From positions 80,697 through 144,696 of the forward strand of contig JBBCGM010000002.1 of NCBI GenBank assembly GCA_037201605.1: DNA of 64,000 bases. The letters run 5' to 3'. Source of the DNA: Candidatus Moraniibacteriota bacterium (GTDB taxonomy: Bacteria; Patescibacteriota; Minisyncoccia; Moranbacterales; UBA1568). Position numbers and translations under genes: made by a program. The notes under the pieces are model-generated. The model had not been told where the DNA came from. It saw only the letters and a list, made by a program, of their open reading frames with translations, and did no database searches. Numbering within the stretch: the stretch's first letter is position 1; the number at the start of each line of letters is the position of its first letter. Shown here piece by piece: positions 5,043 through 40,513 of the stretch.

Positions 5043-5336
5043 TTAGGAGAAGGAGATCTTGATATCTTTGACAACCTCTTCGCCCAACTCACTATTGAGA
5101 TTGGCGAGGAGGTTTTCTTTTTGAAGCATGATCTCGGTACGCCACAAAGAGCTTGGGGACTGAAGATAGAGAGCGCCTTCTGAGAAACGTTTGGCGAGTA
5201 TTTTTTGCGCCCCTTGCTCACCGAAGGCGCCCTTCAATACGCGCGAGAAAAGAAAAAGGATGGTCTGCTCATCAGGTGCAGTTTCTCTCGTATTTATTTT
5301 TCTCTTCTTTCGGAGAAGGTCTGACAGATTATGCAT
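5043..5336 (-). CDS. DciA-like (DUF721) small protein, putative helicase-loading factor
   Basis: Internal ATG at 5336 of ORF 5043..5477 overlaps the dnaN stop by 8 nt. C-terminus ...GALYLQSPSSLWRTEIMLQKENLLANLNSELGEEVVKDIKISF resembles the DUF721 pattern by eye. Confidence 0.5.
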   Translation of the reverse strand: MHNLSDLLRKKRKINTRETAPDEQTILFLFSRVLKGAFGEQGAQKILAKRFSEGALYLQSPSSLWRTEIMLQKENLLANLNSELGEEVVKDIKISFS

Positions 5337-6477
5337 ACTCTTTGCGAATCGGCATAAGGATATAGCGATAGTTCGTTGCCTTCTCTCCAGATTCAGAAAG
5401 GAGCACTGGGGTGGTTGGCGTGTTAGCGGAAAAGGTGATCTCTTCGCTGCGCAGGGCGCTGATCCCCTCCATAACATAGCGGGGATGAAAGACGAAGGTC
5501 ATCGGTTCTTCGCCCTTACTTGCTTTGAGAGGAAAAATACTCGTATTGTCGCCAATTTCTTTGGACTGAGAAAGGATGGTAGCTGTTTCCTTTTTAGGAT
5601 CAAGCACTAAGGCAATCTCGCCGCTTACAAAGGATGAGAGGCCTGAGGCGATCTTGAGAGCGCGGATACAATCATCTTTGCGCAACACGACCTCAAGACC
5701 GAATTTTTCCGGAATAATCTGGTGATAATCGGGGTAACGGCCATTAATGAGACGGGAGACGAGACGGACATTTTCTGCTTCAAAGAAAATTTGGTTTTCC
5801 TCGAGAGCTATCTGAAGAGATTCTGTTTCTGTGCCAATAACGCGCATCAGCTCTTGAATAGTCGCGGTTGGAAGGATAAGTGATGGATTTTCCTCTCGAA
5901 AGTTTTTGTAACCAATTGCTGGTTTTTCCAGCGGAAGAATCTCCTGCCCAAGACGAAAACTATCTGTCGCAGCCACTTCTATTTGCCGCTCACCAAAAGC
6001 TATATGCACACCACTCAGTTCAGGGCGAGATTCATTAGTACTGACACAGAAAAGAAGTCTCGCTAAAGCCGCTTTCAACTCCTGAGCCGGCAAAGAGAAA
6101 GGAAATTCTTTTTTATATTCAGGAATAATCGGGAAATCCTGACCGTCCAGAACCTTGATATTGAGCGTATACCCCCCTGAAGTGAGTTTAAGGTACCCCT
6201 GAGAGGATTCAAGGGTAATAACCTCTCCTTGGGGCAAATTATGCACAAATTGAGCCAGTACCTTGGCTGGAACAGCAAGTTTTCCTTCGGATTCGATTTT
6301 CGCTCCCACACCTACCATAATACCAATCTCTAAATTGGTAGCTGAAAGCTTTAAGCGCCCTTTCTGTGTTTCGAAAAGAATATTACTGAGAATAGGAAGT
6401 GACATCTGCTTCCCAACAACACGATCAAGAGCGAGAAGGGCATTTGAGAGGTTTTCTTGAGTACAAAGAAGTTTCAT
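5329..6477 (-). CDS. dnaN: DNA polymerase III beta sliding clamp
   Basis: 382-aa ORF directly downstream of dnaA. N-terminus MKLLCTQENLSNAL...LPILSNILFE...LKLSATNLE is typical of beta clamps. Confidence 0.9.
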   Translation of the reverse strand: MKLLCTQENLSNALLALDRVVGKQMSLPILSNILFETQKGRLKLSATNLEIGIMVGVGAKIESEGKLAVPAKVLAQFVHNLPQGEVITLESSQGYLKLTSGGYTLNIKVLDGQDFPIIPEYKKEFPFSLPAQELKAALARLLFCVSTNESRPELSGVHIAFGERQIEVAATDSFRLGQEILPLEKPAIGYKNFREENPSLILPTATIQELMRVIGTETESLQIALEENQIFFEAENVRLVSRLINGRYPDYHQIIPEKFGLEVVLRKDDCIRALKIASGLSSFVSGEIALVLDPKKETATILSQSKEIGDNTSIFPLKASKGEEPMTFVFHPRYVMEGISALRSEEITFSANTPTTPVLLSESGEKATNYRYILMPIRKEYA

Positions 6478-6737
6478 AGGGTTTAAGTTAAGTTCTTCTC
6501 TTCTTATTTAAAATTTATTATTACTATTAGGGTAGTGGATATTGGGATAAGTCCCCAGAATGCCTTTGCTAAGGCAATTTTATTGAAGATACTCTGGGGA
6601 AAGAAAAAGGAAAGGAGATGTATTTTTGTACAAAAGTCACTTTTTTAATAGGAGGTTCTTTTTTGTGCACACATCCATACTTTTTGTACAAGGCTTATCC
6701 AATAAAAACCCATCGCTTATACAGGCTTATCCACACT
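6478..6737. promoter_or_regulatory. Candidate oriC segment (dnaA-dnaN intergenic): DnaA boxes plus AT-rich tract
   Basis: Perfect TTATCCACA at 6727-6735. Near-matches are TTATCCAAT (6695-6703), AGTGGATAT (6534-6542) and TGGGATAAG (6543-6551). AT-rich run at about 6500-6530. Confidence 0.6.
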
Positions 6738-8160
6738 TTAGGAGTAGTACAGGCGTTCCTGAACTGTCGAAACCTCCTCATTGACGCGGGAGCTGGTATT
6801 TTTGAGGGCATCAATTTTTTCAAAAGCGTGCAAAGCTGTTGTATGGTCGCGCCCACCTAAAAGCGCGCCGATGCTTGAAAATGGCATCTTGAGTTCTTGA
6901 CGCAGCAGATACATCATGACTTGGCGCGGATAGGAAATCTCCTTTTTTCTTCCCTTCTTGATCAAATCTTCTTTTGAAACGTTAAAGAATTCACCTATCA
7001 CCGAAAAAATATCTTCTGGACGGATATTCTTTTTATTATGCTCGATAATTTCTGAGAGAATCTTCTGGATGCTGGGGATATCCGGAGTAATCTTATGAAA
7101 TTCGGAATAGGCGATAACGCGATTGAGCGCCCCCTCCAATTCACGGATATTCTGATTAATATTCTCTGCGATATATTGAAGGGCCTTTTTCTCTATAAAG
7201 AAGCCCTTTTCAGCCACTTTTGACTCAAGAATAGCTAGGCGCGTCTCGAGACTGGGCCTACTGATATCAGTGATCATGCCGCCCTCAAAGCGTGAGCGCA
7301 GGCGCTCTTCCAGGGTCGCGATAGCCTTCGGTGGACGGTCACTGGAGATGACGATTTGCTTGTTAATTTGGTAGAGGGCATTAAAAATATGGAAAAATTC
7401 GTTCTGCGTCTTTTCTCTGCCCGAAAGGAACTGGACATCATCGATGATCAGGAGGTCCATCTGCTGATAGTACTCTTTAAAGAGGTCGATTTTCTGGTTT
7501 TTTATGGAATCGACTAGTTCTGTCGTAAAGCGCTCTGAAGTGATGTATTTGATACGTTTCTCCGGGTGGCTGAGGCTTACCTCATTTCCGATGGATTGAA
7601 GGAGGTGGGTTTTGCCTAAGCCGACACCTCCATAAATAAAGAGGGGGTTATAGCCTGCTCCGAGATTCTGGGAGACGGCATAGCAGGCCGCTCTCGCTAG
7701 CTCATTGTTTTCGGCTACGATAAAGTTATCAAAAGTGTAGCGAGTATTAAGATTTGATTCGTGGAAAGCTGGCTGAGAGAGGCCGTCCTCCATTCTAAAA
7801 ACAGGCTTTTCCAAGATCTTTTTTCGTACAAAGTCACCTTCTTGGAAGCTCTGAGGACTGTTTTTTTGGGCTCCCTCCTGCTGAATCAAGAGAAGGAGGT
7901 GCACTTGACCGTCGCTCTCCGGAAATAGAACAGCGCATTTCCCGGACCGAGGGGTCAAGGCTCTTAAGGGCCTTGAGAATATGCATGGAATACTTGTTTT
8001 CCAGCCATTCTTTTGCGAAACCATTAGGGACGCCTATAGTGACCACACCTCCCTTGTTTTCCAAAATAGAAGTATTTTTAAACCAGGTGACAAAATTGGC
8101 TTTAGAAAGGGAAAGTTCGATTTGTCCCAGCACAGCTTTCCATAAGTCCTGATTTTCCAT
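6738..8160 (-). CDS. dnaA: Chromosomal replication initiator DnaA (one frame break)
   Basis: N-terminal domain is in ORF 7834..8205 (MENQDLWKAVLGQIELSL...). The AAA+ and DNA-binding domains are in ORF 6738..8024 (GGVGLGKTHLL, LIIDDVQF, HTTALHA). The frames can be joined at the A7 run (T7 on + strand, 7861-7867). Confidence 0.9.
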
Positions 8161-8205
8161 AGCGAAAAGATGATAAAAAGGAGGCGGTGAAAGGCAGTAT
8201 AGCAC

Positions 8206-8264
8206 GGTGGATAAGTGTTCGCGAGGGCTTATTCAAGGCAAAAATGTGCATAAGGCGTGGATAA
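8206..8264. promoter_or_regulatory. Two DnaA-box matches in the dnaA/rpmH divergent intergenic region
   Basis: GGTGGATAA at 8206-8214 and GTGGATAA at 8257-8264, both the complement of TTATCCAC. Confidence 0.5.
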
Positions 8265-8284
8265 GTAGAGAAAGAAGCGAAGAG

Positions 8285-8313
8285 TTGACTTTTTGAGCTA
8301 ATTTCCCTACACT
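8285..8313 (+). promoter_or_regulatory. Sigma70-like promoter upstream of rpmH
   Basis: TTGACT (8285-8290), 17-nt spacer, TACACT (8308-8313). Confidence 0.4.
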
Positions 8314-8340
8314 AGAGAGACTTTGCATTCAAGATCTCCT

Positions 8341-8475
8341 ATGAAGAGAACCTACCAGCCGAAAACCAGGAAAAGAGCGCGCCGCCACGGCTTTCTGAAG
8401 CGTATGAGTACCGTGGGAGGTAAGCGCGTTATTGCCAGCCGGCGTCGTAAGGGCCGAAAAAAGCTCTCCGTTTAG
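8341..8475 (+). CDS. rpmH: 50S ribosomal protein L34
   Basis: Hand translation gives [44 protein letters not shown]. At 44 aa it is below the ORF-track cutoff. Confidence 0.95.
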
Positions 8476-8485
8476 CGCTTTTTCC

Positions 8486-8827
8486 ATGTCTGAGTTACGG
8501 CCGCTTAGTGCCAAAGAGGATTTTGAAAGGGTTTTTCGTTACGGAAAAGCCCTTTTTTTGGGGGATTTATCCCTTAAATACGCCAAAACTCTCCCGGGCC
8601 AGAAAGCTATTAGACGCTTTTCTTTCGGAAAAAGCAAAGTTTTTCTTGCAAGTGACCGAAATCGTTTGCGCCGCACTCTTATAGGGGCTTTAGAGAGGAG
8701 TCAAAACCCCCTCTTCACGCAGTATGATATGATATTCTATGCGCCTAAAAAGCTCTCCAAAAAGCCAAAAATAGATCCAGAAGCCCTTATTTTAGCCCTC
8801 GGAGATGTTCTTGCCCGTCAAAAATAA
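8486..8827 (+). CDS. rnpA: RNase P protein component
   Basis: Follows rpmH. Internal ATG at 8486 of ORF 8432..8827 (MSELRPLSAKEDFERVFRYGKA...). Small basic protein with conserved synteny. Confidence 0.8.
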   Translation: MSELRPLSAKEDFERVFRYGKALFLGDLSLKYAKTLPGQKAIRRFSFGKSKVFLASDRNRLRRTLIGALERSQNPLFTQYDMIFYAPKKLSKKPKIDPEALILALGDVLARQK

Positions 8828-8832
8828 TACCT

Positions 8833-9561
8833 ATGCTCAGCCTTTTTCACACTTTTATCTCTCAGCCTCTCTATAACGCCCTCGTATTCCTCTACAATGT
8901 GGTTCCGGGTGGGGATTTCGGCATTGCCATTATCTTGACCACCATCCTCCTCAAGGTCCTCATGCTGCCCTTGTCCAAGAAGCAGATCGAGTCCCAGAAG
9001 AAAATGCAGGAGCTGCAGCCAAAAATGAAAGAAATTCAGGCTAAACACCGGGATAACAAGGAAGAGCAGACCAAGGCCCTGATGCAGCTCTATAAGGAAG
9101 AGCAGACCAATCCTTTCTCCGGCTGCTTGCCGCTTCTCGTGCAGATTGTTTTCCTAATCGCTATTTATCATGTCATTATCCGCATTTCTCAAGCCGCTTT
9201 CACTATCAATGGCAGCGAGCTTTACGCTTTTGTCGAAAATCCAGGTACGGTAAATCATCTGTTTCTCCATATTGTCGATCTGGCTCGTCCAAATATCCTT
9301 TTAGCTGCCCTGGCTGCCCTGGCCCAGTATTTCCAGACGAAGATGATGCTCCAGAACATCCCAACACCTGTCAAAAAAGAAGGTGCCTCAAAAGGCGAAC
9401 CTGATTTTGCGGCTATAATGAACAAGCAGATGCTCTACATTGCGCCTGCCATCACGCTCTTCATTGGCGCGACCTTCCCGGCTGCCCTCTCGCTCTACTG
9501 GCTTACCTCAACACTCTTCATGCTTTTCCAGCAGATTGTTATTTTCCGCAAGCAATCTTGA
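8833..9561 (+). CDS. yidC: Membrane protein insertase YidC (short form)
   Basis: 242-aa polytopic protein with PLSKKQIESQKKMQELQPKMKEIQ and NPFSGCLPLLVQ motifs, in rnpA-yidC synteny. Confidence 0.85.
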   Translation: MLSLFHTFISQPLYNALVFLYNVVPGGDFGIAIILTTILLKVLMLPLSKKQIESQKKMQELQPKMKEIQAKHRDNKEEQTKALMQLYKEEQTNPFSGCLPLLVQIVFLIAIYHVIIRISQAAFTINGSELYAFVENPGTVNHLFLHIVDLARPNILLAALAALAQYFQTKMMLQNIPTPVKKEGASKGEPDFAAIMNKQMLYIAPAITLFIGATFPAALSLYWLTSTLFMLFQQIVIFRKQS

Positions 9562-9565
9562 ACCT

Positions 9566-10063
9566 ATGTCAGAACAGCAGTCCTCCGAAACCATTCTTAA
9601 AAATCTCGCCGAAGGCTTGATTGCCAAACTCGGTTTCGTTGGCAGCGTTCGGGTATCTCAGAAAGAAGATTCGCTTCCGCCAGTGTGGCAGATTGATATT
9701 ACCCTGCCAGAAGGACAGCATTTCCTGATCGGGCAGCACGGGATGAATCTCGGAGCCCTCCAGCACCTTATAAAGATCCTGGGACGCCGAGCGCTCGCTG
9801 AAGAAGGGACTCTGCTTGTAGATGTCAACAACTACTTTGCCGAAAAACGTTCGTTTCTCGAGCGCGAAGCGTATCAAGCAGCCGAGGAGGCTCTGAAAAC
9901 AGGGTTTGCGGTTACTCTCAAGCCGATGCAGCCTTTCGAGCGCAAGATCGTCCATACGGCACTTGCTTCCAATACGGCGGTAATTACCGAGAGCGTCGGA
10001 AAGGGTGATGAGCGACGGGTCTTGGTGCGTCGTCGGGAGGAAGAGGCAACAGAATCCGAATAA
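9566..10063 (+). CDS. jag: Jag/KhpB-like KH + R3H RNA-binding protein
   Basis: ATG at 9566 (MSEQQSSE...). C-terminus ...PFERKIVHTALASNTAVITESVGKGDERRVLV is an R3H-type motif. Follows yidC. Confidence 0.75.
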   Translation: MSEQQSSETILKNLAEGLIAKLGFVGSVRVSQKEDSLPPVWQIDITLPEGQHFLIGQHGMNLGALQHLIKILGRRALAEEGTLLVDVNNYFAEKRSFLEREAYQAAEEALKTGFAVTLKPMQPFERKIVHTALASNTAVITESVGKGDERRVLVRRREEEATESE

Positions 10064-10096: not shown

Positions 10097-11551
10097 ATGC
10101 CGGTAGCTAGAAAAATCGCGTACAACGTGGTTCTCAACTCCTTTTTCAAGGTTTTTTCGACTGTCGCACTCTCGCTTCTTTCTATTCGTTACGTCACGGC
10201 TTACTTGGGCCAGGATGGTTTCGGCAAATACGCTACGGTCCTAGCTTTTTTCGCTTTCTTCTCAGCTATTCTTGATCTCGGCCTCGGACCCGTGACTGCC
10301 CGGGAAATTTCTCGCGAAGGTGCCGATGAGAAAATGATTCTGGGGAATGTCCTGACCCTCCGCCTCATCGCTTCTTCTCTTCTCCTTCTGATTGCCCCGC
10401 TCTCACTCCTCATTTTCCGCTACCCTCCCGAGCTTGAAATCGGCATCATGATAGCGGCTTTGACGACCCTCTTTTCCACCGCTTCCCTCGTTCTCAATGC
10501 TATTTTCCAGAAATACCTAGCGATGGATCGGGTGGCGATGATCGAATTTGCCGGCAAAGTCCTACAATTGGCACTTATCCTCATTATTGTCAGAATAGAT
10601 GCCGGGTTTTTGGCGGTGACCGCCACGCTCCTTATCTCCCTTTCTTTCAATGCCGCTCTTGCCTATTTCTTCTCTCGCCACTATGTTTCCTTCCGCCTCC
10701 GCCTCGACCTCGGTTACTGGAAACGTTTTCTCGTCGAGTCTCTCCCCATGGGAGCAACGGCTATTATCACCTTTGCCTATTTTAAGTTTGATACCATCCT
10801 CCTTTCGCTTTTGCAGTCCAGCGCGGATGTCGGTATTTACAATGTCGCCTATAAGATTATCGAGAATCTTGTCTTTTTTCCGGCTATGGTTGCGGGCCTT
10901 ATCCTGCCCCTCCTTTCTCGCTTTATCTATACTGACCGCGCGCGTTTCGAGGAAATTGCCAACAAGACCTTCAAAGTGTTCATTCTCATCGTACTGCCGC
11001 TTATGGTCGGCACTTTCTTTCTAGCCCCCCAGATCATTGCTATCGTTTCCGGCGGGTCTTTCGCTCTCTCCGTACCGGTGCTTCGCATCCTCATCTTCGC
11101 CCTTGCCTGTATCTTCTTCGGCCAGTACTTCAATATGCTGCTCATCGTTTCCAACGCACAGCGCAAACTCATGACAGCCCTTCTTTTTGTTGCTGTTTTT
11201 AATATCGGCCTTAACCTGTTCTTTATTCCGCGCTATTCCTATATCGGTTCGGCATTCACTTCCGTAGCTACCGAACTTCTGGTGGTGATTCTGACCAGTA
11301 TCCTGGTCTGGCGCCATGTACGGTTCTTCCCCTCTCTCCGGCATGCCGAAAAAGCCCTTTTCTCAGCCGCCGTCATGGCTCTGGCTCTCTTTTTCCTCGC
11401 GCCCGTCTCCTTCCTACTCGCAGGTCTTATCGGCACCCTGCTCTATGCGGGGTGTCTGTGGCTCACCCGTGCCGTCTCTCTTTCTGAGCTCCAACTCCTC
11501 TTTTCCAATCGCGACTCTATTCCGGAGCCGCTGGAAAATCCTACCCTCTAA
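10097..11551 (+). CDS. Polysaccharide/oligosaccharide flippase (Wzx/MOP superfamily)
   Basis: 484-aa protein with about 12-14 TM helices. N-terminus ...LSIRYVTAYLGQDGFGKYATVLAF is typical of polysaccharide biosynthesis flippases. Confidence 0.7.
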   Translation: MPVARKIAYNVVLNSFFKVFSTVALSLLSIRYVTAYLGQDGFGKYATVLAFFAFFSAILDLGLGPVTAREISREGADEKMILGNVLTLRLIASSLLLLIAPLSLLIFRYPPELEIGIMIAALTTLFSTASLVLNAIFQKYLAMDRVAMIEFAGKVLQLALILIIVRIDAGFLAVTATLLISLSFNAALAYFFSRHYVSFRLRLDLGYWKRFLVESLPMGATAIITFAYFKFDTILLSLLQSSADVGIYNVAYKIIENLVFFPAMVAGLILPLLSRFIYTDRARFEEIANKTFKVFILIVLPLMVGTFFLAPQIIAIVSGGSFALSVPVLRILIFALACIFFGQYFNMLLIVSNAQRKLMTALLFVAVFNIGLNLFFIPRYSYIGSAFTSVATELLVVILTSILVWRHVRFFPSLRHAEKALFSAAVMALALFFLAPVSFLLAGLIGTLLYAGCLWLTRAVSLSELQLLFSNRDSIPEPLENPTL

Positions 11552-11562
11552 AAATCGGCCCT

Positions 11563-12435
11563 ATGCCGAATGTTGCCATCCTCGTGCTGAATTACAATGC
11601 CGGGCCGCTTTTGGCCGAGGCGGTCCGGAGTCTGGGTTCGCAGACCCATACTGAAAAAGCGCTCTATATACTGGACAGCGCTTCCACAGACGGTTCTTTC
11701 CAGGCCGTACAGCGGGAATTCCCGAGCCATACCTACCTGCCGCTTGCCAAAAACCGGGGCTTTGCTTCAGGTATTAATGTCGGTTTAGCCAAGGCCTTTG
11801 CCGACGGAGCTCAATTTGCCTGGCTTTTCAACCCCGATGCCGAAGCGGATCCCCGAACTCTCGCCACCCTTCTTGAAACGGCGCAAAAACATCCGGAAAC
11901 AGGGCTTTTCTCTCCGATCATCGCTGATCCTGAAGGCCGTATCTGGTATGCGGGCGGGCGGATACGGTTCTGGCGCATGCGTACCGAGCATCATCAGAAA
12001 CTCTCTTCCAAGGAGAGCTTTGAAACCGCCTTTATGACCGGCTGCGCGCTTCTCATCAGCCGGACCCTCTGGGAGCGCATCGGCGGCTTAGATGAACGCT
12101 TCTTCCTCTACTACGAGGATGCCGACTATTCCCTGAGAGCTATCCGGGCAGGCTTTTCGCTACGGGTGGTGCCTGCTGCCAGGGTTCTGCATCGTGAGCA
12201 AAGCGAGCAAAGTCCCCAGAAAGTCTATTTCCTGGTTCTTTCAGGGCTTCTTTTCTTCCAAAAATATGCCGAGACCAGGCTCCAAAAGACCTTTTTCCGG
12301 GCGCGTGTTACAATACGCAGAATGAAAAACCGCCTCGATCTGGCCCTGCGTCGCCCTCGGGCATCCTGGGTGGCTCGGGCATACGGTGATTTTTTTCAAC
12401 ACGCTGATGTCCGCGATCTCCCTCATCTTCGTTAA
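11563..12435 (+). CDS. Glycosyltransferase family 2
   Basis: VAILVLNYNAGPLL...LDSASTDGS...NRGFASGINVG...YYEDADYS pattern (GT-A fold with DxD-like motif). Confidence 0.8.
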   Translation: MPNVAILVLNYNAGPLLAEAVRSLGSQTHTEKALYILDSASTDGSFQAVQREFPSHTYLPLAKNRGFASGINVGLAKAFADGAQFAWLFNPDAEADPRTLATLLETAQKHPETGLFSPIIADPEGRIWYAGGRIRFWRMRTEHHQKLSSKESFETAFMTGCALLISRTLWERIGGLDERFFLYYEDADYSLRAIRAGFSLRVVPAARVLHREQSEQSPQKVYFLVLSGLLFFQKYAETRLQKTFFRARVTIRRMKNRLDLALRRPRASWVARAYGDFFQHADVRDLPHLR

Positions 12436-13195
12436 TTATCGCAGCGCCCGCTATCTGGAGAGTGCTCTCCAGAGTCTCTTTGCCCAAGAAAAAGAAGAGG
12501 ATTTCGAAATAATCATATCGAATAATGATGCTGAGGAAACGGTGACTCTCCATGGTTTGCAGGCCCGGTATCCCTTTACGCTTGTCGAGAATCGCGGCAA
12601 TATCGGATTTGCCGCTGCTTGCAACCGCGCCGCCGCTCAAGCGAGCGGCGAAGTCATAGGATTTCTCAATCCAGATATTCTCTGGCGGGAAAAACTTCTT
12701 CCGAGCATTATTGCTATTGTTCAAAACGAACAGGCCGTAATCGGGCTCTCTCTTTTAACCACACAGGGTCTGCAGCAAGCGTACGATCATGGTCACGCCC
12801 CGACCCTCTCACGGCTTTTTCTTAATCACCTCCTCCCCCGGAGCCTTTGGAGGCATGCTTCTACGAATCTATCCCTGCGTTCAGTGGATTGGGTGAGTGG
12901 ATGTACCCTCTTTCTTCCGCAGGCGCTTTTTTCCCAACTTGGCGGCTTCGACGAAGACTTTTTTCTCTATTATGAGGACATTGACCTGTGTATGCGCGCC
13001 AAGCTTGCTGGCCGTCCTGTCTGGTACGCAAGTGGTTTTGCGGTCACCCACTTAGGGGGAAAAAGCCAACCTTCTCGCGCCTCCCAGAAGCGCGCCTATT
13101 TTGCCTCCCAGCGCCGCTATTTTGGAAAGCACCGGCCTCTTTGGGAACGCCTCCTCCTTCCCCTTTTCCAGAAAGCAACCCGCGTCTTTTCCTAG
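12407..13195 (+). CDS. Glycosyltransferase family 2
   Basis: MSAISLIFVNYRSARYL...NRGNIGFAAACN...YYEDIDLCMRA. Start chosen at an internal ATG of ORF 12386..13195. Confidence 0.8.
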   Translation: MSAISLIFVNYRSARYLESALQSLFAQEKEEDFEIIISNNDAEETVTLHGLQARYPFTLVENRGNIGFAAACNRAAAQASGEVIGFLNPDILWREKLLPSIIAIVQNEQAVIGLSLLTTQGLQQAYDHGHAPTLSRLFLNHLLPRSLWRHASTNLSLRSVDWVSGCTLFLPQALFSQLGGFDEDFFLYYEDIDLCMRAKLAGRPVWYASGFAVTHLGGKSQPSRASQKRAYFASQRRYFGKHRPLWERLLLPLFQKATRVFS

Positions 13196-13198
13196 AGT

Positions 13199-14458
13199 AT
13201 GCCCACTTTTCTTGCACTCTTTTTCTTTCTCCTTCCTTTTCAGTTCGCCTTAAGTCCTTTGCCGGGGATTGATTTGCCGGTGGCTCGTCTTCTTGTCATC
13301 ATCCTCTTTCTTGTCTGGTTATTTTCTGGTTTAAAGGGGCGCTCTTTGACTCTCCCCAATCCGCAAATACTTTGGCCCACCCTCTTTTTCCTTGTCTGGC
13401 TCGTGCTTTCTTCCCTTTGGGCGCTACAACCTGACTGGGCATGGCGCAAAAGCGCCTTTCTTTTTAATTTTTTTCTTCTCCTCTTCCCGCTTCTCGCCGT
13501 GTTTTCCCGAGAAGGTCAAAAAACTCGCTATCGGATAACGGCAGCTCTCGTGTCCGGGGCGACCCTCTCCGGAATTATGGGCTCTTTGCAATTTTTATCG
13601 CAATTTGTTTTCGGACTTGAGAAAACCTATACTTTCTGGACTTCCTCAATTCTGCCATTCTTTCTCGGACAGGCGTTCGGGGCTTCCGTACGCGAGTATC
13701 CGAGCCTGCTCGTCAATGTCTCTGACCATACGCTCCTGCGTGCCTCAGGCTTTTTTCCAGACCCGCATCTTTTTGGCCTTTATAGCGCTACCGCGCTCTT
13801 CCTCGCGATCTGGCTCTGGCGCTCTTCCGGGAAAAGATTTTGGCTTTTTTTTGGTAGCATCCTCCTCCTTGCTACGCTCCTCTCTTTTTCCCGAGGCGCC
13901 TACCTTGCGCTTTTCTGCGGAACCATCGTACTCACCTTTCCTGCTTTGAAGCAGTATTTCTCGCTACGCCGCATTTTTTTCGTACTCCTTCTTTCTGGCT
14001 TGCTTGTTTTTTCTCCGATCGGCAATCGTTTGCTTTCAAGCTTTTCCCAGAATGACGGCTCAGTAAATGAACGCCTCAGACTTTGGGAAGAGGCGGCGGA
14101 CCATATAAGCGAAAGGCCGCTTGGCGGTGTCGGACTCGGAAGCTATCCCCTCCTTGTCGATCCGCAAGCTCTCTACCGCACGCCGATCTACGCCCACAAT
14201 CTCTACTTGGATGTGTGGGCGGAGATCGGCCTTGTCGGACTGCTGCCCCTCCTGTTTCTCTTCTTGATAGCCCTCAGGCAGCGTACTTCCGAATATGGAG
14301 AAGCTCCCCGGGCCGCACTTGTCGTTTTTCTTGTGCACTCTTTTTTCGAGACTCCTCTTTTTTCCGTCCATTGTCTGCCACTTCTTCTTTTTCTGCTTGC
14401 CTTTCTTCTCGCTCCTCCGCCCAGCATGAACACCTATGAATCTGATCCGCTTTCCTAA
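13199..14458 (+). CDS. O-antigen ligase / Wzy_C family polymerase-like membrane protein
   Basis: 419-aa polytopic protein with LLSFSRGAYLALF and AHNLYLDVWAEIGLVGLL motifs. Confidence 0.75.
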   Translation: MPTFLALFFFLLPFQFALSPLPGIDLPVARLLVIILFLVWLFSGLKGRSLTLPNPQILWPTLFFLVWLVLSSLWALQPDWAWRKSAFLFNFFLLLFPLLAVFSREGQKTRYRITAALVSGATLSGIMGSLQFLSQFVFGLEKTYTFWTSSILPFFLGQAFGASVREYPSLLVNVSDHTLLRASGFFPDPHLFGLYSATALFLAIWLWRSSGKRFWLFFGSILLLATLLSFSRGAYLALFCGTIVLTFPALKQYFSLRRIFFVLLLSGLLVFSPIGNRLLSSFSQNDGSVNERLRLWEEAADHISERPLGGVGLGSYPLLVDPQALYRTPIYAHNLYLDVWAEIGLVGLLPLLFLFLIALRQRTSEYGEAPRAALVVFLVHSFFETPLFSVHCLPLLLFLLAFLLAPPPSMNTYESDPLS

Positions 14459-15695
14459 ATATCTTAAAGATCTCTCGCGAGAAGAAGGCTTTGTTTGTGC
14501 TGTTTTCCTCCTTATCCCCTTGGCCGGACAGCGTCTTTTTGGTACGCCGCTCTACCCATTGGATATCCTGGCCTTTCTTCTCATACTTTTTTCTTTGATG
14601 CGCCGAGAAGGGTTTCGGGACGGTGTCCTTAGGGTCTGGCATCAAGAGAAAGCGCTTGTTTTTGGCACCCTGCTTTTTCTTGTCGGCACGCTTCTCGCCT
14701 TTTTTACGCATGAACGTACACTCACCGGTTGGGGAGAGCTCAAATCTTGGATTCTTGTCCCCCTGAGCATCTTTCTCGCGACCGCCTCTCTCAAAGAGCG
14801 GATACGCCCGATGTTCCTTTGGCTTGCCTGGCTTGCCATGACGGCCATACTCGCCTCGGTCTCTCTGTGGGGATGGTTCAATAACTTCCTTACCTTTGAT
14901 GGACGACTGGCGTATCCTGAAAACTCTCCCAATTTTTTGGCAGAACTTCTCGCTCCTGGACTGCTTCTCTGCTTTTTCTTTGGCTCCCGCTTTTTGCGGA
15001 AAAATATTCTTTTCGTCTTTCTTCCCTTTCTTCTCCTCATTCCCTTTCTTGCAACGCGGTCCTACGGGGCATGGCTTGCATTTTTTCTAGCGGCTTTTTC
15101 CCTCTTCCTCTCTCTTCGTTTGAAGGGAAGGGGCATTCACCTTCTCCTCCTCTCTGTATTCTTTTCTATCGCCATATTCGGCTTCTATGAAATAAGAACC
15201 GATAAATTCACTGCACTCTCTCATCTGGAAGAGCGATCATCCCTTGCATCTCGTATTATGATTTGGAAGAGCGCCGCCTCAATGCTTCACGACGAACCTT
15301 TTCTCGGTATCGGGCTTGGGCGTTTTCAAACGGTCTATCTTGAGAAGCAATCGGAGTTTCCGCCCTACCTGGAATGGGCCGTACCCGAGCCGCATAATTT
15401 CTTTCTTTCTGTTTGGCTTTCCTCAGGACTCCTTGGCCTTCTCGGCATGCTTGTATTGCTTTGGTGGACTGCGCAGAACCTCTTCTTTCTTTTTCGGGCG
15501 CATTCATCAGGGGCAGCTCTTTTACTCAGCCTCTCCCTCTTCCTTCTGGTTTTCGGCTTCTTCGATACTCCTTTTTTCCGTAACGATCTCTCGGTTCTGT
15601 TTTTCCTCTTTCTCCTTCTTGTCCTGCTCGAAAAAACCCGCCTTACAGATAGAGAGGGCGGGCAAGCAGCGCGTTTGAGAAAAGTAAACGGCTAA
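14436..15695 (+). CDS. O-antigen ligase-like membrane protein (second paralogue)
   Basis: 419-aa polytopic protein with TRSYGAWLAFFL and PEPHNFFLSVWLSSGLLGLLGM motifs. Overlaps the previous gene by 23 nt. Confidence 0.65.
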   Translation: MNLIRFPKYLKDLSREEGFVCAVFLLIPLAGQRLFGTPLYPLDILAFLLILFSLMRREGFRDGVLRVWHQEKALVFGTLLFLVGTLLAFFTHERTLTGWGELKSWILVPLSIFLATASLKERIRPMFLWLAWLAMTAILASVSLWGWFNNFLTFDGRLAYPENSPNFLAELLAPGLLLCFFFGSRFLRKNILFVFLPFLLLIPFLATRSYGAWLAFFLAAFSLFLSLRLKGRGIHLLLLSVFFSIAIFGFYEIRTDKFTALSHLEERSSLASRIMIWKSAASMLHDEPFLGIGLGRFQTVYLEKQSEFPPYLEWAVPEPHNFFLSVWLSSGLLGLLGMLVLLWWTAQNLFFLFRAHSSGAALLLSLSLFLLVFGFFDTPFFRNDLSVLFFLFLLLVLLEKTRLTDREGGQAARLRKVNG

Positions 15696-32082: not shown

Positions 32083-33061
32083 TTATACGATAGCAAATCC
32101 GTACTCCGTCTCGCGGATGCGGCCGGGGAGTTCGAAGCCGCTCGCCAGACGATGGCCTCCCCCGCCGAATCGGTGGGCGATAGCCGACACATCTACCTGG
32201 TGCTGTTCCATGGTCCTCAGGCTCGCGCGTACCGTATCGTCATCACGCTCCGAGAGCACGAGGGCGAAGCGAGCGTCGGGCACGGTCGAGAGAATGGAGG
32301 CGACTTGGTAAATGTCTTCTGGGCGCGCGTGGCAGAGTGCAAGGTCTTCCTGGGTAACGGCCGTTACCAGCATGCCGTTTTCTGGGTAGAGGCGCGCCCG
32401 TTCCAGCGCCTTCCCCCACAGGCGCAGCGCCGCGATGTCTTGGTGCGCGTAGATGAGCTGTGAAACTTTCGCAAGCGGCGCCCCGCTCTTCATGAGGGCG
32501 GCCGTGATTTCCATAACACGAGGTGAAACGCTGGCATGCTGCAGGTTGCCAGTGTCGAACAAAATGCCGGCAAGCAAAGCGCTGGCGGCTTTTTTGGTCA
32601 GGCGCGCTTCCACCGACATGAGAAAGAGATAGACCAGTTCGCAGGTCGAAGAATATTTGGGATCGATCATTACGATATCGCCGGAGACGCTGATATCAGG
32701 ATGATGATCCATGAGCACTACCACCGTTTTTTTCCGATACGCGCTCGCGAATCAGATGAAACCCGCGATCTACGCTATCGAGTGCGATGACGGCGTCATA
32801 GGCGCCGAGATCCACATTGTCCGGATGCGTAAAATGCTCTTTGGAAAGCGCAGAGAGACTTTCAGGAAAAGCGTCAAAGCAAGCGATAGTCGCTTCTTTA
32901 CCCAGCCCCAGGATGTATTCTTGCATTGCGAGATTAGCACCGACGGTATCAGCGTCGGGTCTGGTGTGAGCGAAAAGCAAAATACGTTCTGCGGTGCTTA
33001 TGACGTAGTCGAGCTGACGGAATTCTTGGTGAAAATCTTGCATAGCGGAATTAAACGTCAC
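32083..33061 (-). CDS. DHH/DHHA1 phosphoesterase (NrnA-like), one frame break near 32710
   Basis: N-terminal ORF 32696..33061 has HTRPDADTVGA (DHH context). C-terminal ORF 32083..32724 has DPKYSSTCELV and GGGHRLASG (DHHA1 GGGH). Confidence 0.8.
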
Positions 33062-33709: not shown

Positions 33710-35254
33710 ATGTTCAGGAAAGTCCCGCTACTTTTTTCTCAGCTCTCTTCAAGCGCTTTTTGGGAAAAGGTTTTTTTGGCAGGCCTTATCTTAACCGCCT
33801 TTCTTTCTATCCGGAAGACAATCGCTACCATCGCTCCCCTTCCGGGAGCTTCTTTCAATGAATATGCTGATATTTCTCTATATGCTTTTGATGTCTTTTT
33901 CATACTGTGGGCCTCCTGTTTTATATTAAGAAACAAAATATTAATATTGTCAATATTAAGATCTCTCTATAAGCAGAAATCACAAATGTTCCACGTGGAA
34001 CATTTTCCTCTATCAGCTCTTATCATAGTCTTCTTTCTCTCTACTCTCTTCTCAAAATACCCAATCCTGAGTTTCTATACATTGCATTTTTGGCTGCAGG
34101 GCATATTTCTATTTACAGCCCTCCTAATTTATCCAATGTTCCACGTGGAACATTTGAAAAACTCATCAAAAAATGTTCCACGTGGAACATTTGAAAAACT
34201 CATCAAAAAATGTTCCACGTGGAACATTTTACAGTTAACATGGTCAATTATCCTTATATTAAGCCTTTTTGACCTCATTCTCACTTTCTGGCAACCTTTT
34301 AGCGGCTCCTCTCTAGGACTATGGTGGCTGGGGGAGCCAAGCCTAAAATTAGGTAATCCGGCAGTAGCCAAAGTATTCCTCTTTGGAGAGCCTATTTTAC
34401 GCGGTTATGGATTTTTTCTTCATCCAAATATAAATGCTCTTTTTCTCCTTTGCGTAATTTGGATTCTCATAAATGTTCCACGTGGAACATTCTGAACATT
34501 CAAACACCCAATGTTCCACGTGGAACACGGGTCTAACTTCAAAAAAAGCCTTTTTACTAGCCACCCTCTGTGCTTTTGGATTCTTGCTGACCTTTTCAAA
34601 AGGGGCTTTTTTACTTGCAATAGGGCTTTTTCTCTATAAAATGTTCCACGTGGAACATCCAGGTCGTTTAAAAAGCTTTTATACGATGTTCCACGTGGAA
34701 CATGTGAAGTTTCTGATACCCATAATTTTGTGGATAACCATTGTATTCTTTGCTTTATACACGCTTTTGCACAACTCTCAGTCTCTCTCAGAGCGTGAAA
34801 ATCTTCTTTTTCTGTTCTCTGAAGGTTGGAGTCCGAGTTTATGGGGGTCTGGGTTAGGGACTACGGTAGTTGAAAACATTGATAGGGGATTGGTAAATCC
34901 AGACTGGTTCTTGCAGCCAGTACATAATGTATATCTCATTGCCTTAGGAGAAACAGGCCTTCTAGGGCTATTAGCATGGACTTTCACTCTTTTTAAACAC
35001 TTTTTGGAGCCATGTTCCACGTGGAACATCTGCGGAAATTGTACAAGGATGTTCCACGTGGAACACTAAATAGTAATGATGGGGTCAAAAAATGTTCCAC
35101 GTGGAACATTTACGGAGGATTACTCTTTATCTTTGTCGGCAGTATGTTTTTCGATCATTTTTTATGGGACATACCCAGCGGATTATGGATGTTCTGGATT
35201 TTTCTCGGATTGGCTTATCCTAGTCATCTAGTATATATTGACAAAATTAAATAA
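33710..35254 (+). CDS. Third O-antigen-ligase/Wzy-like membrane protein, carrying 11 embedded parS-type palindromes (two frame breaks)
   Basis: Three consecutive ORFs (33710..34495, 34473..35069, 35012..35254). Wzy_C-like motifs LLTFSKGAFLLAIG and PVHNVYLIALGETGLLGLL. MFHVEH, CSTWN and VPRGT hexapeptides mark the palindromes. Confidence 0.6.
33986..35109. repeat. Array of 11 parS-type palindromes (16-bp core TGTTCCACGTGGAACA; 18-bp ATGTTCCACGTGGAACAT)
   Basis: 18-mer starts: 33986, 34136, 34173, 34210, 34473, 34511, 34641, 34686, 35012, 35049, 35092. The 16-bp core is perfect in all 11. In the copies at 34511 and 35049 the 18th base is C. The copies fall into five clusters with intra-cluster spacing of 37-45 bp. 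Confidence 0.9.
34136..34227. repeat. 37-bp tandem repeat, about 2.5 units, each containing one parS-type palindrome
   Basis: ATGTTCCACGTGGAACATTTGAAAAACTCATCAAAAA is repeated identically at 34136 and 34173, with a third partial unit from 34210. Confidence 0.9.
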
Positions 35255-35265
35255 AATTGTATAAT
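35238..35265 (+). promoter_or_regulatory. Sigma70-like promoter
   Basis: TTGACA (35238-35243), 16-nt spacer, TATAAT (35260-35265). Confidence 0.5.
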
Positions 35266-35464: not shown

Positions 35465-36463
35465 TTGATCATGCGTGCTTTCGGTTTGTCGAACAATAGC
35501 GAACAGAGCGCTTCTTTTAAATTCGTGTTTCCTGTTTTCGTTGCGCTTTTTTTGGCAAGTGCTTTTTTCTTGGCGCGTGCCGCTGAGCAAAGCCCGAGTA
35601 ATTCTTCTGTTTTTCTTGATAGCGATCAGGACAATCTGACTGATGACGAAGAAGCACTGTACGGAACTGACCCCCGGAAAAAAAGATACTGACGGCGATA
35701 GCTATTCGGACAGCGTGGAAATCCAGAGCGGTTTTGATCCTCTCAAACCCGCACCTGGGGATCGTATCGCGCCGGTGACAGATGTTGAGGCGCCGGTTCA
35801 GAACGGAACTTCTCAAGAGAATCTCACCAACAAAGCTTCCGATCAGATAGCTTCTCTTTTGAAGAACGCCGAGCAGGGAGAGAGCGTGAATATGGAGGAT
35901 ATTACGCAGGCCGTACAGGGAGCTCTTTCTCAGAATACGGAAGTGACTCTTCCGGAAATTGATATTTCCAAGATCAAAATTAAGAAAGCGCCCTCGACAA
36001 ACTCTCTGACGAAAAACGCGAAGCCCAGGAAAAAAAGGACGTGACGGAATACCTCACCGTGATCGCCTACTTGTTTGCCAATAATGCGCCACAGTCTTTT
36101 ACGAATGAAGACGAGTTCGGAGCGATGCTCGGCGCATTAGCGCAGCAGGGGACGCTTTCGCTTACCAGCGGCAACAGCGCATACTTGGATGCGCTGGCTG
36201 AAAAGGGGAAGAACATTACTGACGGCGCACTCGATATCGAAGTGCCCGAACAGATGCTCTCGGTGCATGTCAAAGCGCTCCAGTTGGCAGCCTACGCCCA
36301 AACTCTCAAGGATGAATTACGGCCAGGAGAGGCTGACCCTTTGGGCCAGATCGCGACACTTTCCAAAGTCCAAGGCTTTCTCAATGTCATGAGTTCTTTT
36401 ATGGATGAAGTGCATGCGCGCATGGGCGATTACGGCATCGAAGAAATTCCGCTCGACATCTAG
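35465..36463 (+). CDS. Secreted protein with thrombospondin-type-3-like Ca-binding repeats (at least 2 frame breaks)
   Basis: Signal/TM helix. DSDQDNLTDDEEALYGTDPRKKDTDGDSYSDSVEIQSGFDP is only readable across the A7 run at 35678-35684. A second break lies near 35985-36045. Confidence 0.55.
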
Positions 36464-37726: not shown

Positions 37727-39561
37727 TTAGGCTACCGCTCCGGCTTTTTGCCCGACGATCAGATCGAACTCTTCTTTTTCAAGCGTTTCTTTTTCAAGAA
37801 GCGTCTTGGCGAGCCTATTAAGTACTTCGCGTTTTTCATTCAGGATTTCCGTCGCTTTCCTTGAAAGCATCGTCAATGAGTCGCGACACTTCGCGGTCAA
37901 TGCTCTCGGCAGTCGTTTCGGAATAGTTGCGTTCCTCGTGCATCTCGCGGCCCAAGAAGACCATTTCTTCCTTTTTGCCAAAGGTGCGCGCCCCCAGTCC
38001 GCTCATGCCGTAGCGCGTCACCATGTTGCGTGCCATTTGGGTGGCGCGCTCCAGATCGTTTGAGGGACCGGTAGTAATGTCGCCAAAGACGAGCTTTTTC
38101 TGAAGCGTAGCCGCCGAGCAGCACGGCCAGTTCATCGTAGAATTAGATTGCGGGAATGGAGCGTCTTGTCTTCCTCCGGTACGGCCATAGTGTAGCCTCC
38201 GGCATGCCCGCGTGAAATGATCGAGATCTTGTGGACCGGATCAGCATGTTCGAGACTGGCGCCGACGAGCGCGTGCCCGCCTTCGTGATAGGCAACGATC
38301 TCTCGTTCTTTAGCATTAATGGCGCGATTGCGGCGTTCGGGACCGAGGAGTACCTTTTCGATCGACTCAGCGAGATCTGCCATTTCGATTTCCTTCTTGT
38401 CACGGGCGCGTGGCAAGAATAGCTCCTTCGTTGAGCAGGTTGGCGAGGTCCGCGCCGAGAAGCCTGGCGTGCGGGCCGCGATACGGCGCAGGTCAACATT
38501 TTTCGCCAGGGGCTTGTTCTTGGTGTGGATCTTGAGGATCTTCTCTCGGTCGTTAATGTCGGGCAGGTCGAGCGTGACGCGCCGATCAAAACGTCCGGGA
38601 CGCAGAAGTGCCGGGTCGAGTACGTCCGGCCGGTTGGTAGCAGCGATCACGATTACGTGCGTGTTGGTTTCAAAGCCGTCCATCTCGACCAGGATCTGGT
38701 TCAGGGTCTGCTCGCGTTCATCGTGTCCGCCGCCCAGTCCTGCACCGCGGTGCCTTCCGACGGCATCGATTTCGTCAATAAAGACAATCGAAGGCGCGTT
38801 TTTCTTGGCTTGTTTGAAGAGGTCTCGCACGCGGCTTGCTCCTACGCCGACGAACATCTCGACGAATTCTGATCCGCTGATATTGAAGAAGGGAACGCCC
38901 GCTTCACCCGCTACCGCTTTGGCCATAAGAGTCTTGCCGGTGCCGGGCGAACCGAGCATGAGTACGCCCTTAGGAATTTTGGCGCCCATCAAGAGGAACT
39001 TCTTCGGCTCTTTCAAAAGTCCACTACTTCTTCGAGTTCCAGTTTGGCTTCTTCGCTCCCGGCAACATCCTTGAAGGTGATGCGCTTGCGCTTCTCTTTG
39101 GGATCCAGAATGCGAGCCCGGCTCAAACCGAAGGAGAGCGCCTGGGCATTGCCACGGCTCGCTTGGCGGAACATGAACCACAGGAAGACAGAGATGATGA
39201 GGACCGGCAGGAGGAAAGGAAGAAGGGTTGCGAACCAGAAAGCGGCGCCCGAGGGTTCTTTGACCGTGATGGCGACTGCGGCGAGCTTGTCTTTCTCTGT
39301 TCCGTAATTGGCAAGCGTTTCCGTAAGGGAAGCCTCGTTTTCTTTGCTTGCTTTGGCGGTCACGCCGTCATTTTTGGTGATGGTGAGGGCATTTCCCTCT
39401 ACCACGATGCTTTGTACCTGGCCCTGATTGATCTGAGAAACGAGTTCTGACAGAGAAATATTTTCAGGTTTCTTCTCGGGTACCTGGTAGAGCAGGGCAA
39501 TACCGGCACAGAGGAAGAGGACGAGAATCCAAGGAGAGAGGTTTTTGGTCGTTTTTTGCAT
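37727..39561 (-). CDS. ftsH: ATP-dependent zinc metalloprotease FtsH (about 5 frame breaks)
   Basis: Pieces 39013..39582, 38132..39181, 37836..38135 and 37727..37981 carry Walker A GSPGTGKT, Walker [33 protein letters not shown] and Zn motif HEGGHA. One junction is DF|LKEPKKF at the T4 run (A4 on + strand, 39015-39018). Confidence 0.9.
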
Positions 39562-39578: not shown

Positions 39579-40513
39579 TCACGTTTTGAGCAGTCTCACT
39601 TTATCACCTTTCTGTTCCAATAACAACCCGAAAAAGGCGACTTTCCGGTTTTTCGCCTTCACTCTCCGATAAGGGCTTTTTCCGTCTCGAGCAAAGCGCT
39701 TTTGGGCAGGGCTCGCGGGAGCATCTCTCCCGAGAGCAGGCGCAGAAAAGCCAACCTTTTCGGTTTTCTTGAGCTCCCGGAAGGCTTTTCTGGAAAAAGT
39801 AAGCGCTTCTTTCTCTGAAGAGATGAGCGGCCAGAGGGTCCTTGTATGATGCGTCTGCTCTTCGGCGAGCGTCTCCGCAGTACGAGCGAGCAAGGCAACG
39901 ATACCGGGCTGGTAGTCTTTGGCCAAGAGCGGCAAGAGGTCGTGCCTCAGGCGATTTCTCAGAAAATGGCGGTTGAGATTGCTCTCATCATCGTGAAAGG
40001 GGAGACCGAGGGCTTGTGCCGCTTTCTCAAGTTCGTCTTGGGTCGCGAAGAGAAGAGGTCGGATAACAGAGGCATTTTTCGGCTGCATGCCCGAGAGACC
40101 TGTTCGTCCCGTCCCCGCGCAGCAGGCGCAGGAGAAAAGTCTCCGCCTGATCTTGCTGGTGATGTGCTACGGCAACTGCTGACAACCCTCGCTTTTTCTG
40201 CAGTTTTTCAAAAAACGCATAGCGTCGCTCCCGGAGACGTTTCTTCTAGATTTTGCGTGCCGCGCACGCGCACCTGCAGAACATGGTAGGGGAGGCCGAA
40301 CTTTTGCGCAGTGCTTTGCACCAGGCGCTCGTCACTTTGGCTTGCCTTACCGCGCAGATGGTAATTGACATGCGCTACTTCCAGAAAAAGACTCTCTTTG
40401 GGAGCGACATAGCTGAGGAGTGCCAGAAGCAGCATGCTGTCCCGACCGCCAGAGACAGCTACGAGCAAGCGATCATTTTTTCTGCCAGAGTTCGTGGCGC
40501 TTGGCAAAAGCAC
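39579..40513 (-). CDS. tilS: tRNA(Ile)-lysidine synthase TilS (at least 2 frame breaks)
   Basis: The N-terminal piece has the PP-loop LLVAVSGGRDS. The middle frame reads RYAFFEKL...VAVAHHQQDQAETFLLRLLRG. The C-terminal piece has IRPLL...LPFHDDESN. Confidence 0.85.

Follow-up and report, generated by a model that had tools for sequence, protein, structure and literature searches.

Eleven parS sites inside the reading frame of a WaaL/Wzy-like membrane-protein gene: a probable chromosome centromere in a Moraniibacteriota bacterium

The stretch analysed here (hereafter the window) comprises 64,000 nt of the genome of Candidatus Moraniibacteriota bacterium (GenBank assembly GCA_037201605.1, contig JBBCGM010000002.1, positions 80,697 to 144,696 of the forward strand). 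At 33986-35109 of the window, a 1.1-kb segment harbours 11 canonical parS sites, and this segment is probably (with a probability that we put at about three in four) a chromosome centromere carried inside a still-functional gene for a WaaL/Wzy-like membrane protein. In ParABS systems, ParB binds parS, closes as a cytidine triphosphate (CTP) clamp and spreads, and ParA segregates the complex (bioRxiv 2023.06.27.546657). The sites are confined to this one gene, the reading frame of which is conserved open among relatives; they are placed in loops of the encoded protein, are under selection at the DNA level and lie near the probable replication origin. Judged from these sequence features, the array would be bound by ParB and would serve as the centromere.

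The full 64 kb was scanned for ATGTTCCACGTGGAACA[T/C] with up to two mismatches, and a total of 11 copies were found, all within 33986-35109 (starting at 33986, 34136, 34173, 34210, 34473, 34511, 34641, 34686, 35012, 35049 and 35092). The exact 18-mer was present in nine of the 11, the final base being C in two, and the 16-bp core TGTTCCACGTGGAACA, a perfect palindrome, was exact in every copy; dinucleotide-preserving shuffles of the window put the number expected by chance at zero. A second scan of the window using the degenerate parS consensus TGTTNCACGTGNAACA, which TGTTCCACGTGGAACA fits, recovered the identical 11 sites with one mismatch permitted, and under the same settings the 10 kb preceding the window yielded no parS-like site. 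Base for base, the core equals parS2 and parS3 of Pseudomonas aeruginosa PAO1 (PMC4368675), and the 18-mer equals parS of Bdellovibrio bacteriovorus, a site bound by purified ParB in a way that is sensitive to CTP (bioRxiv 2023.06.27.546657).

Within the host gene (33710..35254, plus strand), the 11 copies are grouped into five clusters. The gene, for which the evidence is its open reading frames (ORFs), a Wzy_C match and the structural model of an orthologue, is predicted to encode a protein with 12 transmembrane (TM) helices. Each cluster falls in a different loop, and all five loops were assigned to the cytoplasmic side. Cluster 1 (33986..34003; loop TM2-TM3) is a single parS, ATGTTCCACGTGGAACAT, in phase a, that is, read as MFHVEH. 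Cluster 2 (34136..34227; loop TM4-TM5) contains three copies, at 34136, 34173 and 34210, in phases a, c and b (MFHVEH..VPRGT..CSTWN); with spacings of 37 and 37 bp and identical 19-bp spacers, it is a true 37-bp tandem repeat. Cluster 3 (34473..34528; loop TM6-TM7) contains two copies, at 34473 and 34511 (the latter ending in C), 38 bp apart as assembled, and the frame changes here from 0 to 1. The two copies of cluster 4 (34641..34703; loop TM8-TM9), at 34641 and 34686, share phase a at a spacing of 45 bp, such same-phase spacing being a rare class in the family. Cluster 5 (35012..35109; loop TM10-TM11) consists of copies at 35012, 35049 (ending in C) and 35092, with spacings of 37 and 43 bp and, once the frame is repaired, phases a, c and b.

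All that the first-pass annotation of this DNA had stated as fact on the locus was reproduced. The parS 18-mer is stop-free in every frame, so that the palindrome carries no stop in any of its six frames, and it is translated as MFHVEH, CSTWN or VPRGT depending on phase. The locus spans 515 codons (1,545 nt, stop included), clusters 1, 2 and 4 are in frame, and the frame shifts at clusters 3 (TGA 34493-34495) and 5 (TAA 35067-35069). Three ORF pieces are therefore seen in the assembly (33710-34495, 34473-35069 and 35012-35254), with the order being frame 0 up to TGA 34493, frame 1 up to TAA 35067 and then frame 0 to the end. An earlier estimate of roughly 100 extra codons from the five clusters proved close: the inserts add ~108 codons, and the protein without them measures 406 aa. 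The palindrome clusters cover ~21% of the gene.

Both frame breaks can be cured by one base each. At the first (34471..34495, with the TGA of 34493-34495 in frame 0), one surplus base is suspected, the candidate errors being AAA 34471-34473 or TT 34490-34491. When the repair was run on the sequence, dropping one A of AAA 34471-34473 together with the second repair produced an open frame; dropping one T of TT 34490-34491 should also open the frame, and should restore a 37-bp spacing (the commonest parS spacing) and phases c then b. At the second break (35001..35069, with the TAA of 35067-35069 in frame 1), one T is suspected to be missing from the T5 run 35001-35005, and its addition results in MFHVEH-x7-VPRGT-x9-CSTWN, the identical pattern being found in intact homologues. 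The two single-base repairs yield a 514-aa ORF with canonical phase order, which retains 15 of 15 family-invariant and 31 of 35 near-invariant positions. Apart from the two breaks, there are no stops or indels in the 1.5 kb of this AT-rich gene.

When the flanking genes were set against their unbroken orthologues in L126, a related genome, at least ten frameshifts came to light in ~12 kb: one in UDG, one in the NrnA-like DHH protein, two in the TSP3-like gene, at least three in a hypothetical protein, at least one in FtsH and two in TilS. This bears out the earlier remark that 1-nt indels are numerous in this half of the window; several of the junctions that were inspected adjoin A or T runs of up to seven. 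Genes that are split between 31500 and 43500 are FtsH (37751-39561), TilS (39588-40468), the NrnA-like gene (32089-33043), UDG and the TSP3-like gene (35513-36460), a split-gene pattern that is typical of unpolished long-read assembly. As ftsH and tilS are essential and such genes cannot all be pseudogenes, the assembly must carry about one uncorrected indel per kb; at this background, ~1.3 breaks are expected in the 1.5-kb host gene, where two are observed. The breaks thus fit the background indel rate and, as the first-pass annotation had cautioned, are no proof of pseudogenisation. Most likely, the two stops are uncorrected homopolymer errors of a long-read-type assembly. Because the breaks match this background, are repairable by single bases and leave 15 of 15 invariant residues in place, the gene is very likely intact in the organism.

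The host gene is also low in GC (39.0%, versus 50.7% for the window), ranking fourth lowest among 625 sliding windows of equal length; the paralogues described below are at 50.9 and 49.0%, so that the impression, previously gained by eye, of a gene more AT-rich than its paralogues was borne out by computation. An AT-rich island, 3-12 points under the flanks, was found in 11 of 11 orthologous loci (L123, L125, L126, L131, L142, L146, L157, L159, L170, L191 and L193), while parS-free paralogues are of normal GC. That the gene is a true pseudogene in this organism, in which the centromere DNA alone has been kept while relatives are intact, is unlikely. In its favour, the assembly places two in-frame stops (TGA 34493 and TAA 35067) at or beside clusters in the most AT-rich part of the window, and three of 80 metagenomic loci (see below) are likewise without a single covering ORF. 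However, breaks occur about as often in the essential FtsH and TilS, and in NrnA (~1 per kb, or ~1.3 breaks expected here), each break is cured by one homopolymer-length change that restores the canonical phase order, all 15 invariant residues are intact with no further stops or indels, and AT-richness is common to the intact orthologues in all 11 loci.

Two tandem, parS-free genes on the plus strand, at 13199-14458 and 14436-15695, had been proposed as intact Wzy_C paralogues of 419 aa each, and both are indeed clear Pfam matches of that length (78 and 69 bits). They overlap by 23 nt and are located within a glycan-synthesis cluster that also includes a flippase-like gene (10097-11551) and two GT2 genes (11563-13195). 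The repaired host protein spans the whole Wzy_C profile (PF04932) weakly (E=9.5e-4, 19.4 bits), and many of its orthologues carry a precomputed PF04932 match; the host family is a divergent branch of the Wzy_C / O-antigen ligase superfamily. For the fold, an AlphaFold2 model of an orthologue (P0001), built from a 94-sequence alignment, stands in for the window protein. The model is of good confidence (predicted local distance difference test (pLDDT) 83; predicted template modelling score (pTM) 0.87) and features 12 long helices, and its sole significant match in the PDB is the O-antigen ligase WaaL (7TPG_B; E 8.7e-6, probability 1.00).

Residues R231, Y233, H238, N240, R362 and H405 of the window protein occupy family-invariant columns. 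The invariant residues, which include those of RxYGxFxHPN, an Arg of the long loop 9-10 and those of QP(V/I)HN, sit in loops that alternate with the insert-bearing ones. In WaaL and PglS, the catalytic His and Arg are described as periplasm-facing, and by this homology the loops holding the invariant His and Arg are probably the outer loops. Since helices alternate and the catalytic residues lie on the outer face, the insert-bearing loops would be cytoplasmic. Of the 946 parS peptides in the 94-sequence alignment, 915 are located within five hypervariable hydrophilic blocks (P0001 residues 77-85, 132-168, 251-283, 314-357 and 458-464) between conserved hydrophobic blocks. These five map to loops TM2-3, 4-5, 6-7, 8-9 and 10-11, and are disordered or of low pLDDT in the P0001 model. 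In the alignment, the five clusters of the window are plain insertions, represented by gaps in parS-free homologues and in both paralogues, and the 406 aa that remain compare with 403 aa in WaaL and 419 aa in the paralogues. The checks proposed earlier, alignment with the paralogues and placement relative to the TM helices, thus located the inserts in inter-helix loops, with none in TM helices or catalytic segments. In ~20 homologues, a sixth, lone parS (peptide V-S/P-R-G-T) is present in outer loop 9-10, at column 1076 of the alignment (for example, site 11185 of L123).

The arrangement is not peculiar to this genome; the architecture is conserved lineage-wide. With the stitched protein as query, a homology search gave 350 significant matches, of which the best 120 were examined: they are 294-716 aa long, derive from metagenome-assembled genomes (MAGs) of Moraniibacteriota, Parcubacteria, Minisyncoccota and 'Patescibacteria group', and nearly all carry translated parS (median of 10 and maximum of 18 copies per protein among these 120, with generalised motifs). 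Furthermore, an exhaustive phmmer search over 1.84 billion 50%-identity cluster representatives found 1,007 relatives at E<=1e-10; among the top 150 of these, 107 were new representatives, with at least one parS peptide in 105 and at least three in 91. In total, over 200 distinct homologues carry translated parS copies, all such counts being over related sequences that are not phylogenetically independent, and divergence in the family reaches ~25-30% protein identity.

As homology searches may favour parS peptides, 80 metagenomic loci were fetched by three catalytic-motif patterns that are free of parS peptides. In these loci, 387 of 387 exact parS sites lie inside the gene and none was found in 646 kb of flanks, and one stop-free ORF spans the whole match in 77 of the 80. 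The site-free loci among the 80 have shorter genes (~420-520 codons) with no gyrA nearby, and look like paralogues.

Gene order is conserved as well. In related loci of the Candidate Phyla Radiation (CPR), the parS sites are within the called gene in 12 of 12 (L123), 15 of 15 (L126) and 11 of 17 cases (L125, where the remaining six are just upstream of the called start). L125 and L126 share the order of the window (UDG, NrnA, RbfA, the gene, TSP3-like, ..., FtsH, TilS, Gmk, S1, Lactamase_B, GyrA), with FtsH and NrnA being unbroken in both, and in a distant Parcubacteria locus the gene is still found beside GyrA, S1, TilS and FtsH. In Patescibacteria (Moraniibacteriota, Parcubacteria and others), the arrangement is an old one, with synteny maintained. 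In the window itself, a perfect sigma-70 consensus on the plus strand (35238-35265; TTGACA, 16 nt, TATAAT; 12 of 12) overlaps the final codons of the host gene and is directed towards the TSP3-like gene downstream. An additional case was noticed in L056 (724-2262 of CAZQLN010000002.1, a MAG labelled Bdellovibrionales), where a 513-codon open frame contains eight parS sites and aligns almost end to end with the window protein at 29% identity; either the contig belongs to CPR and was mis-binned, or the architecture extends beyond CPR.

Two layers of selection are legible in these genes. At the DNA level, FHVE, CSTWN and VPRGT peptides are encoded by the exact parS codons in 291 of 300 cases, whereas the background codon usage of the same genes (in which TTT, CAT, GTT and GAA are preferred) predicts ~1% for FHVE. 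One DNA word gives rise to three unrelated peptides by phase alone, and 382 of the 430 sites in CPR loci preserve the 16-bp core exactly, while the bases around it vary. Selection therefore acts on the DNA word and not on the peptides. At the protein level, the frame is open and the catalytic residues are invariant. The two layers meet in the variant of parS that is used: TGTTCCACGTGGAACA is stop-free in six frames, whereas the classical TGTTTCACGTGAAACA has a TGA in one phase. In lineages with the T/A variant, no phases other than FHVK and VSRET are seen, and the TGA-containing hybrid is rarer on the coding strand than its mirror image (7 versus 26; binomial p 0.0013, uncorrected for shared ancestry).

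Spacing between sites follows the codon too. Spacer lengths step by codons, along a ladder of 31, 34, 37, 40, 43, 46, 49 and 52 bp, and adjacent copies hardly ever share a codon phase: the parS spacings in classes 0, 1 and 2 modulo 3 number 3, 98 and 57 in CPR DNA loci (L123-L207) and 18, 479 and 102 in proteins. In arrays of other phyla (L003-L122, among the matches listed), many of which are beside parAB, the numbers are 44, 40 and 63, with no codon periodicity. The avoidance of a shared phase could stem either from selection (a 'frame lock') or from a founder effect together with in-frame indels. In addition, identical 90-nt triplet modules, spacers included, are found in two to three loops of one gene in P0001, P0007, P0014 and P0091 (residues 139-168 of P0001, for example, equal residues 254-283), and such repeated modules indicate gene conversion or copy-and-paste between loops.

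The window also contains a probable oriC, composed of dnaA and the dnaA-rnpA intergenic region (6738..8431; dnaA at 6738-8024 on the minus strand, DnaA boxes at 8206-8256), along with dnaN, DciA and rnpA-yidC-jag. By the positions of dnaA and the DnaA boxes, the array is ~26 kb from this probable origin. In L170, the gene and dnaA are separated by ~2.3 kb, and 18 loci have gyrA close by. Within 5043-10063, DciA, dnaN and dnaA (minus) face rnpA, yidC and jag (plus); unlike the usual bacterial arrangement, no parAB or rsmG follows jag. A cultivated Saccharibacterium (a Patescibacterium) encodes Soj (ParA) and ParB, with transposon-sequencing calls of growth-defect, essential and essential at three time points (PMC10633639 supplement), and a ParABS system therefore exists in the phylum.

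Several observations weigh against a working centromere inside a working enzyme gene. First, the 19.4 bits of the host protein are under the Pfam gathering threshold of Wzy_C (31.7), which both paralogues exceed, and removal of the inserts did not rescue the score, as no Wzy_C match was then reported. Second, the cytoplasmic side of the loops is deduced from helix alternation and homology to WaaL, and ~3% of the parS peptides are outside the five blocks, mostly at one recurrent spot in outer loop 9-10. Third, both breaks are in or beside clusters, which is mildly unexpected if errors are random, and translation of the host gene is itself a deduction from its sequence. Fourth, the protein matches were partly gathered by shared words, parS peptides included, and the metagenome scan avoids this bias at seeding and not at ranking. 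Finally, motif scans and tblastn, the latter with approximate sequences of Spo0J and Soj of B. subtilis as queries, detected ParA and ParB in non-CPR loci only; neither was found in the window, the preceding 10 kb or the +-10-kb CPR flanks (~0.65 Mb).

That last result would also be expected if the palindromes were not ParB sites, being instead a selfish or mobile repeat (like repetitive extragenic palindromes or miniature inverted-repeat transposable elements) or the operators of another, CPR-specific DNA-binding protein, and the identical 90-nt triplet modules in different loops resemble copy-and-paste dynamics. Such an origin is nevertheless very improbable, as the core equals validated parS base for base, the variants in other lineages (TGTTTCACGTGAAACA plus hybrids) are exactly the known parS variants, and the 16-bp core is fixed while its flanking bases vary. 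Moreover, mobile repeats disperse, whereas here no copy is outside the gene in the 64 kb plus 646 kb of flanks, and the position is near the origin. It is scarcely credible that MFHVEH, VPRGT and CSTWN are functional protein motifs with an incidental likeness to parS: their positions are conserved across the family, yet one DNA word yields three unrelated peptides by phase, parS codons are exact in 97% (versus ~1% expected from the genes' own codon usage), the copies per loop vary from 0 to 8 and the segments are predicted to be disordered. Artefact or chance was ruled out by the absence of copies in the shuffles and the independent presence of the sites in hundreds of assemblies.

Under the favoured interpretation of a centromere within an intact gene, ParB dimers would load onto the 11 sites, turn into closed CTP clamps and spread; the resulting partition complex would be segregated by ParA. 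Because the C/G form of parS is stop-free in six frames, the copies in the loops would be read through, adding ~108 disordered residues to the protein. The DNA word would be kept by selection for protein binding, and the open frame by selection on the enzyme. Three circumstances may account for an array inside a gene: the stop-free palindrome would permit read-through, the cytoplasmic loops of a WaaL-type protein would tolerate disordered inserts, and, once the array had settled near the origin, centromere and enzyme would both be indispensable. The first-pass annotation had offered two alternatives. The former, that centromere sites are tolerated as insertions in the loops of a membrane protein, is strongly supported by the gaps in homologues, the loop placement and the conserved open frame in hundreds of CPR lineages, while the latter, a decaying paralogue serving as landing pad, is unsupported, given the 15 of 15 invariant residues, the intact syntenic orthologues and breaks at the background rate.

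Whether the embedding is adaptive, by membrane tethering and/or frame lock, rather than merely tolerated is a further matter, and we consider the adaptive version doubtful. It might act in two ways. In cells without known origin-anchoring proteins, the ParB-parS complex would be kept at the membrane by transertion of the 12-TM product, the coupling of its transcription and translation to membrane insertion. Alternatively or in addition, as neighbours share a phase in three of the 158 spacings of CPR DNA, loss or gain of a repeat unit by recombination would shift the frame of the gene, so that purifying selection on the protein would police the copy number of the centromere. The consistent AT-rich island and the choice of the one parS variant that is stop-free would then belong to the same design.

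Parts of this arrangement have counterparts in known systems. Like the chromosomal parS clusters of P. aeruginosa (parS1-4) and B. bacteriovorus (two parS upstream of parAB), the array consists of several copies of an identical palindrome near the origin; unlike those, which are few and distributed over kilobases, it packs 11-18 copies into ~1.1-1.8 kb, is away from parAB, and is entirely within one ORF, with rotating codon phases. A parS site is reported to lie within the spo0J gene of B. subtilis (Lin and Grossman 1998). There, too, a ParB site overlaps translated sequence in a gene that survives; however, that is one site in the gene of a cytoplasmic DNA-binding protein, whereas here an array extends over all five cytoplasmic loops of a membrane protein with many TM helices, has been conserved throughout a radiation of phylum level and uses a parS variant that fits the absence of stop codons. 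In plasmid F, sopC is an iterated centromere in which a 43-bp unit containing a 16-bp inverted repeat occurs 12 times in tandem. Both have numerous palindromes of the ParB-binding type at close and regular spacing, but the present array is chromosomal, made of canonical chromosomal parS, divided into five clusters and inside coding sequence.

Dense arrays of the same perfect parS occur outside CPR as well. A scan for two perfect parS 15-40 bp apart returned mostly non-CPR genomes, with three CPR-type loci among the matches listed. Tight parS pairs are common beside parAB: among the matches listed, parA or parB is within 8 kb in 53 of 120 loci of other phyla. The dense non-CPR arrays (L099, L027, L039, L052 and L073), with as many as 14 sites in 1.7 kb, are in stretches without long ORFs. 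The array at 1027-2746 of L099, for example, is followed by parA (2873-3607) and parB (3798-4676); soj/spo0J homologues are in the same 8-kb locus in L099, L027 and L039. The arrays of L099, L027, L039 and L052 share with the CPR arrays the perfect palindrome and a tight 35-50 bp spacing, but those of the L099 type are beside parAB, without long ORFs and without codon periodicity, whereas the CPR copies are in a gene. As for the host, its predicted 12-TM fold is that of the WaaL / Wzy_C superfamily (GT-C_B fold, 7TPG; including the O-oligosaccharyltransferases PglL, PglS and PilO), and it has the conserved outer-face His and Arg of WaaL (QPVHN, RxYGxFxHPN and FSK/R motifs); unlike known members, in which these loops are featureless, the host family carries 50-300 extra disordered residues in its cytoplasmic loops.

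Clusters of parS near oriC were already known, as were single in-gene parS sites and iterated plasmid centromeres. In the literature searched, there was no report of parS or ParB in CPR, of MFHVEH, or of parS in O-antigen-ligase genes, nor anything on chromosome segregation in these lineages. Nor was there, in that literature, a description of the present combination, in which a whole centromere array lies within an ORF and co-evolves with it, occupies each of the cytoplasmic loops of a multi-pass membrane protein and is conserved across a large radiation.

The array is likely the centromere of a large and mostly uncultivated branch of bacteria (Moraniibacteriota, Parcubacteria and relatives). 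It would also represent a natural, long-term case of dual coding, in which a DNA-binding array and an ORF share the same bases down to ~25-30% protein identity, and in which the constraints are legible both ways: a stop-avoiding parS variant and codon-step spacers on the one side, and insertions almost only in cytoplasmic loops on the other. In practice, gene plus array may serve as a marker of the origin-proximal region in CPR MAGs, and annotators should be aware that these 'O-antigen ligase family' proteins hold 50-300 residues that would serve the DNA. A centromere tethered to the membrane via transertion becomes, in these bacteria, a directly testable idea.

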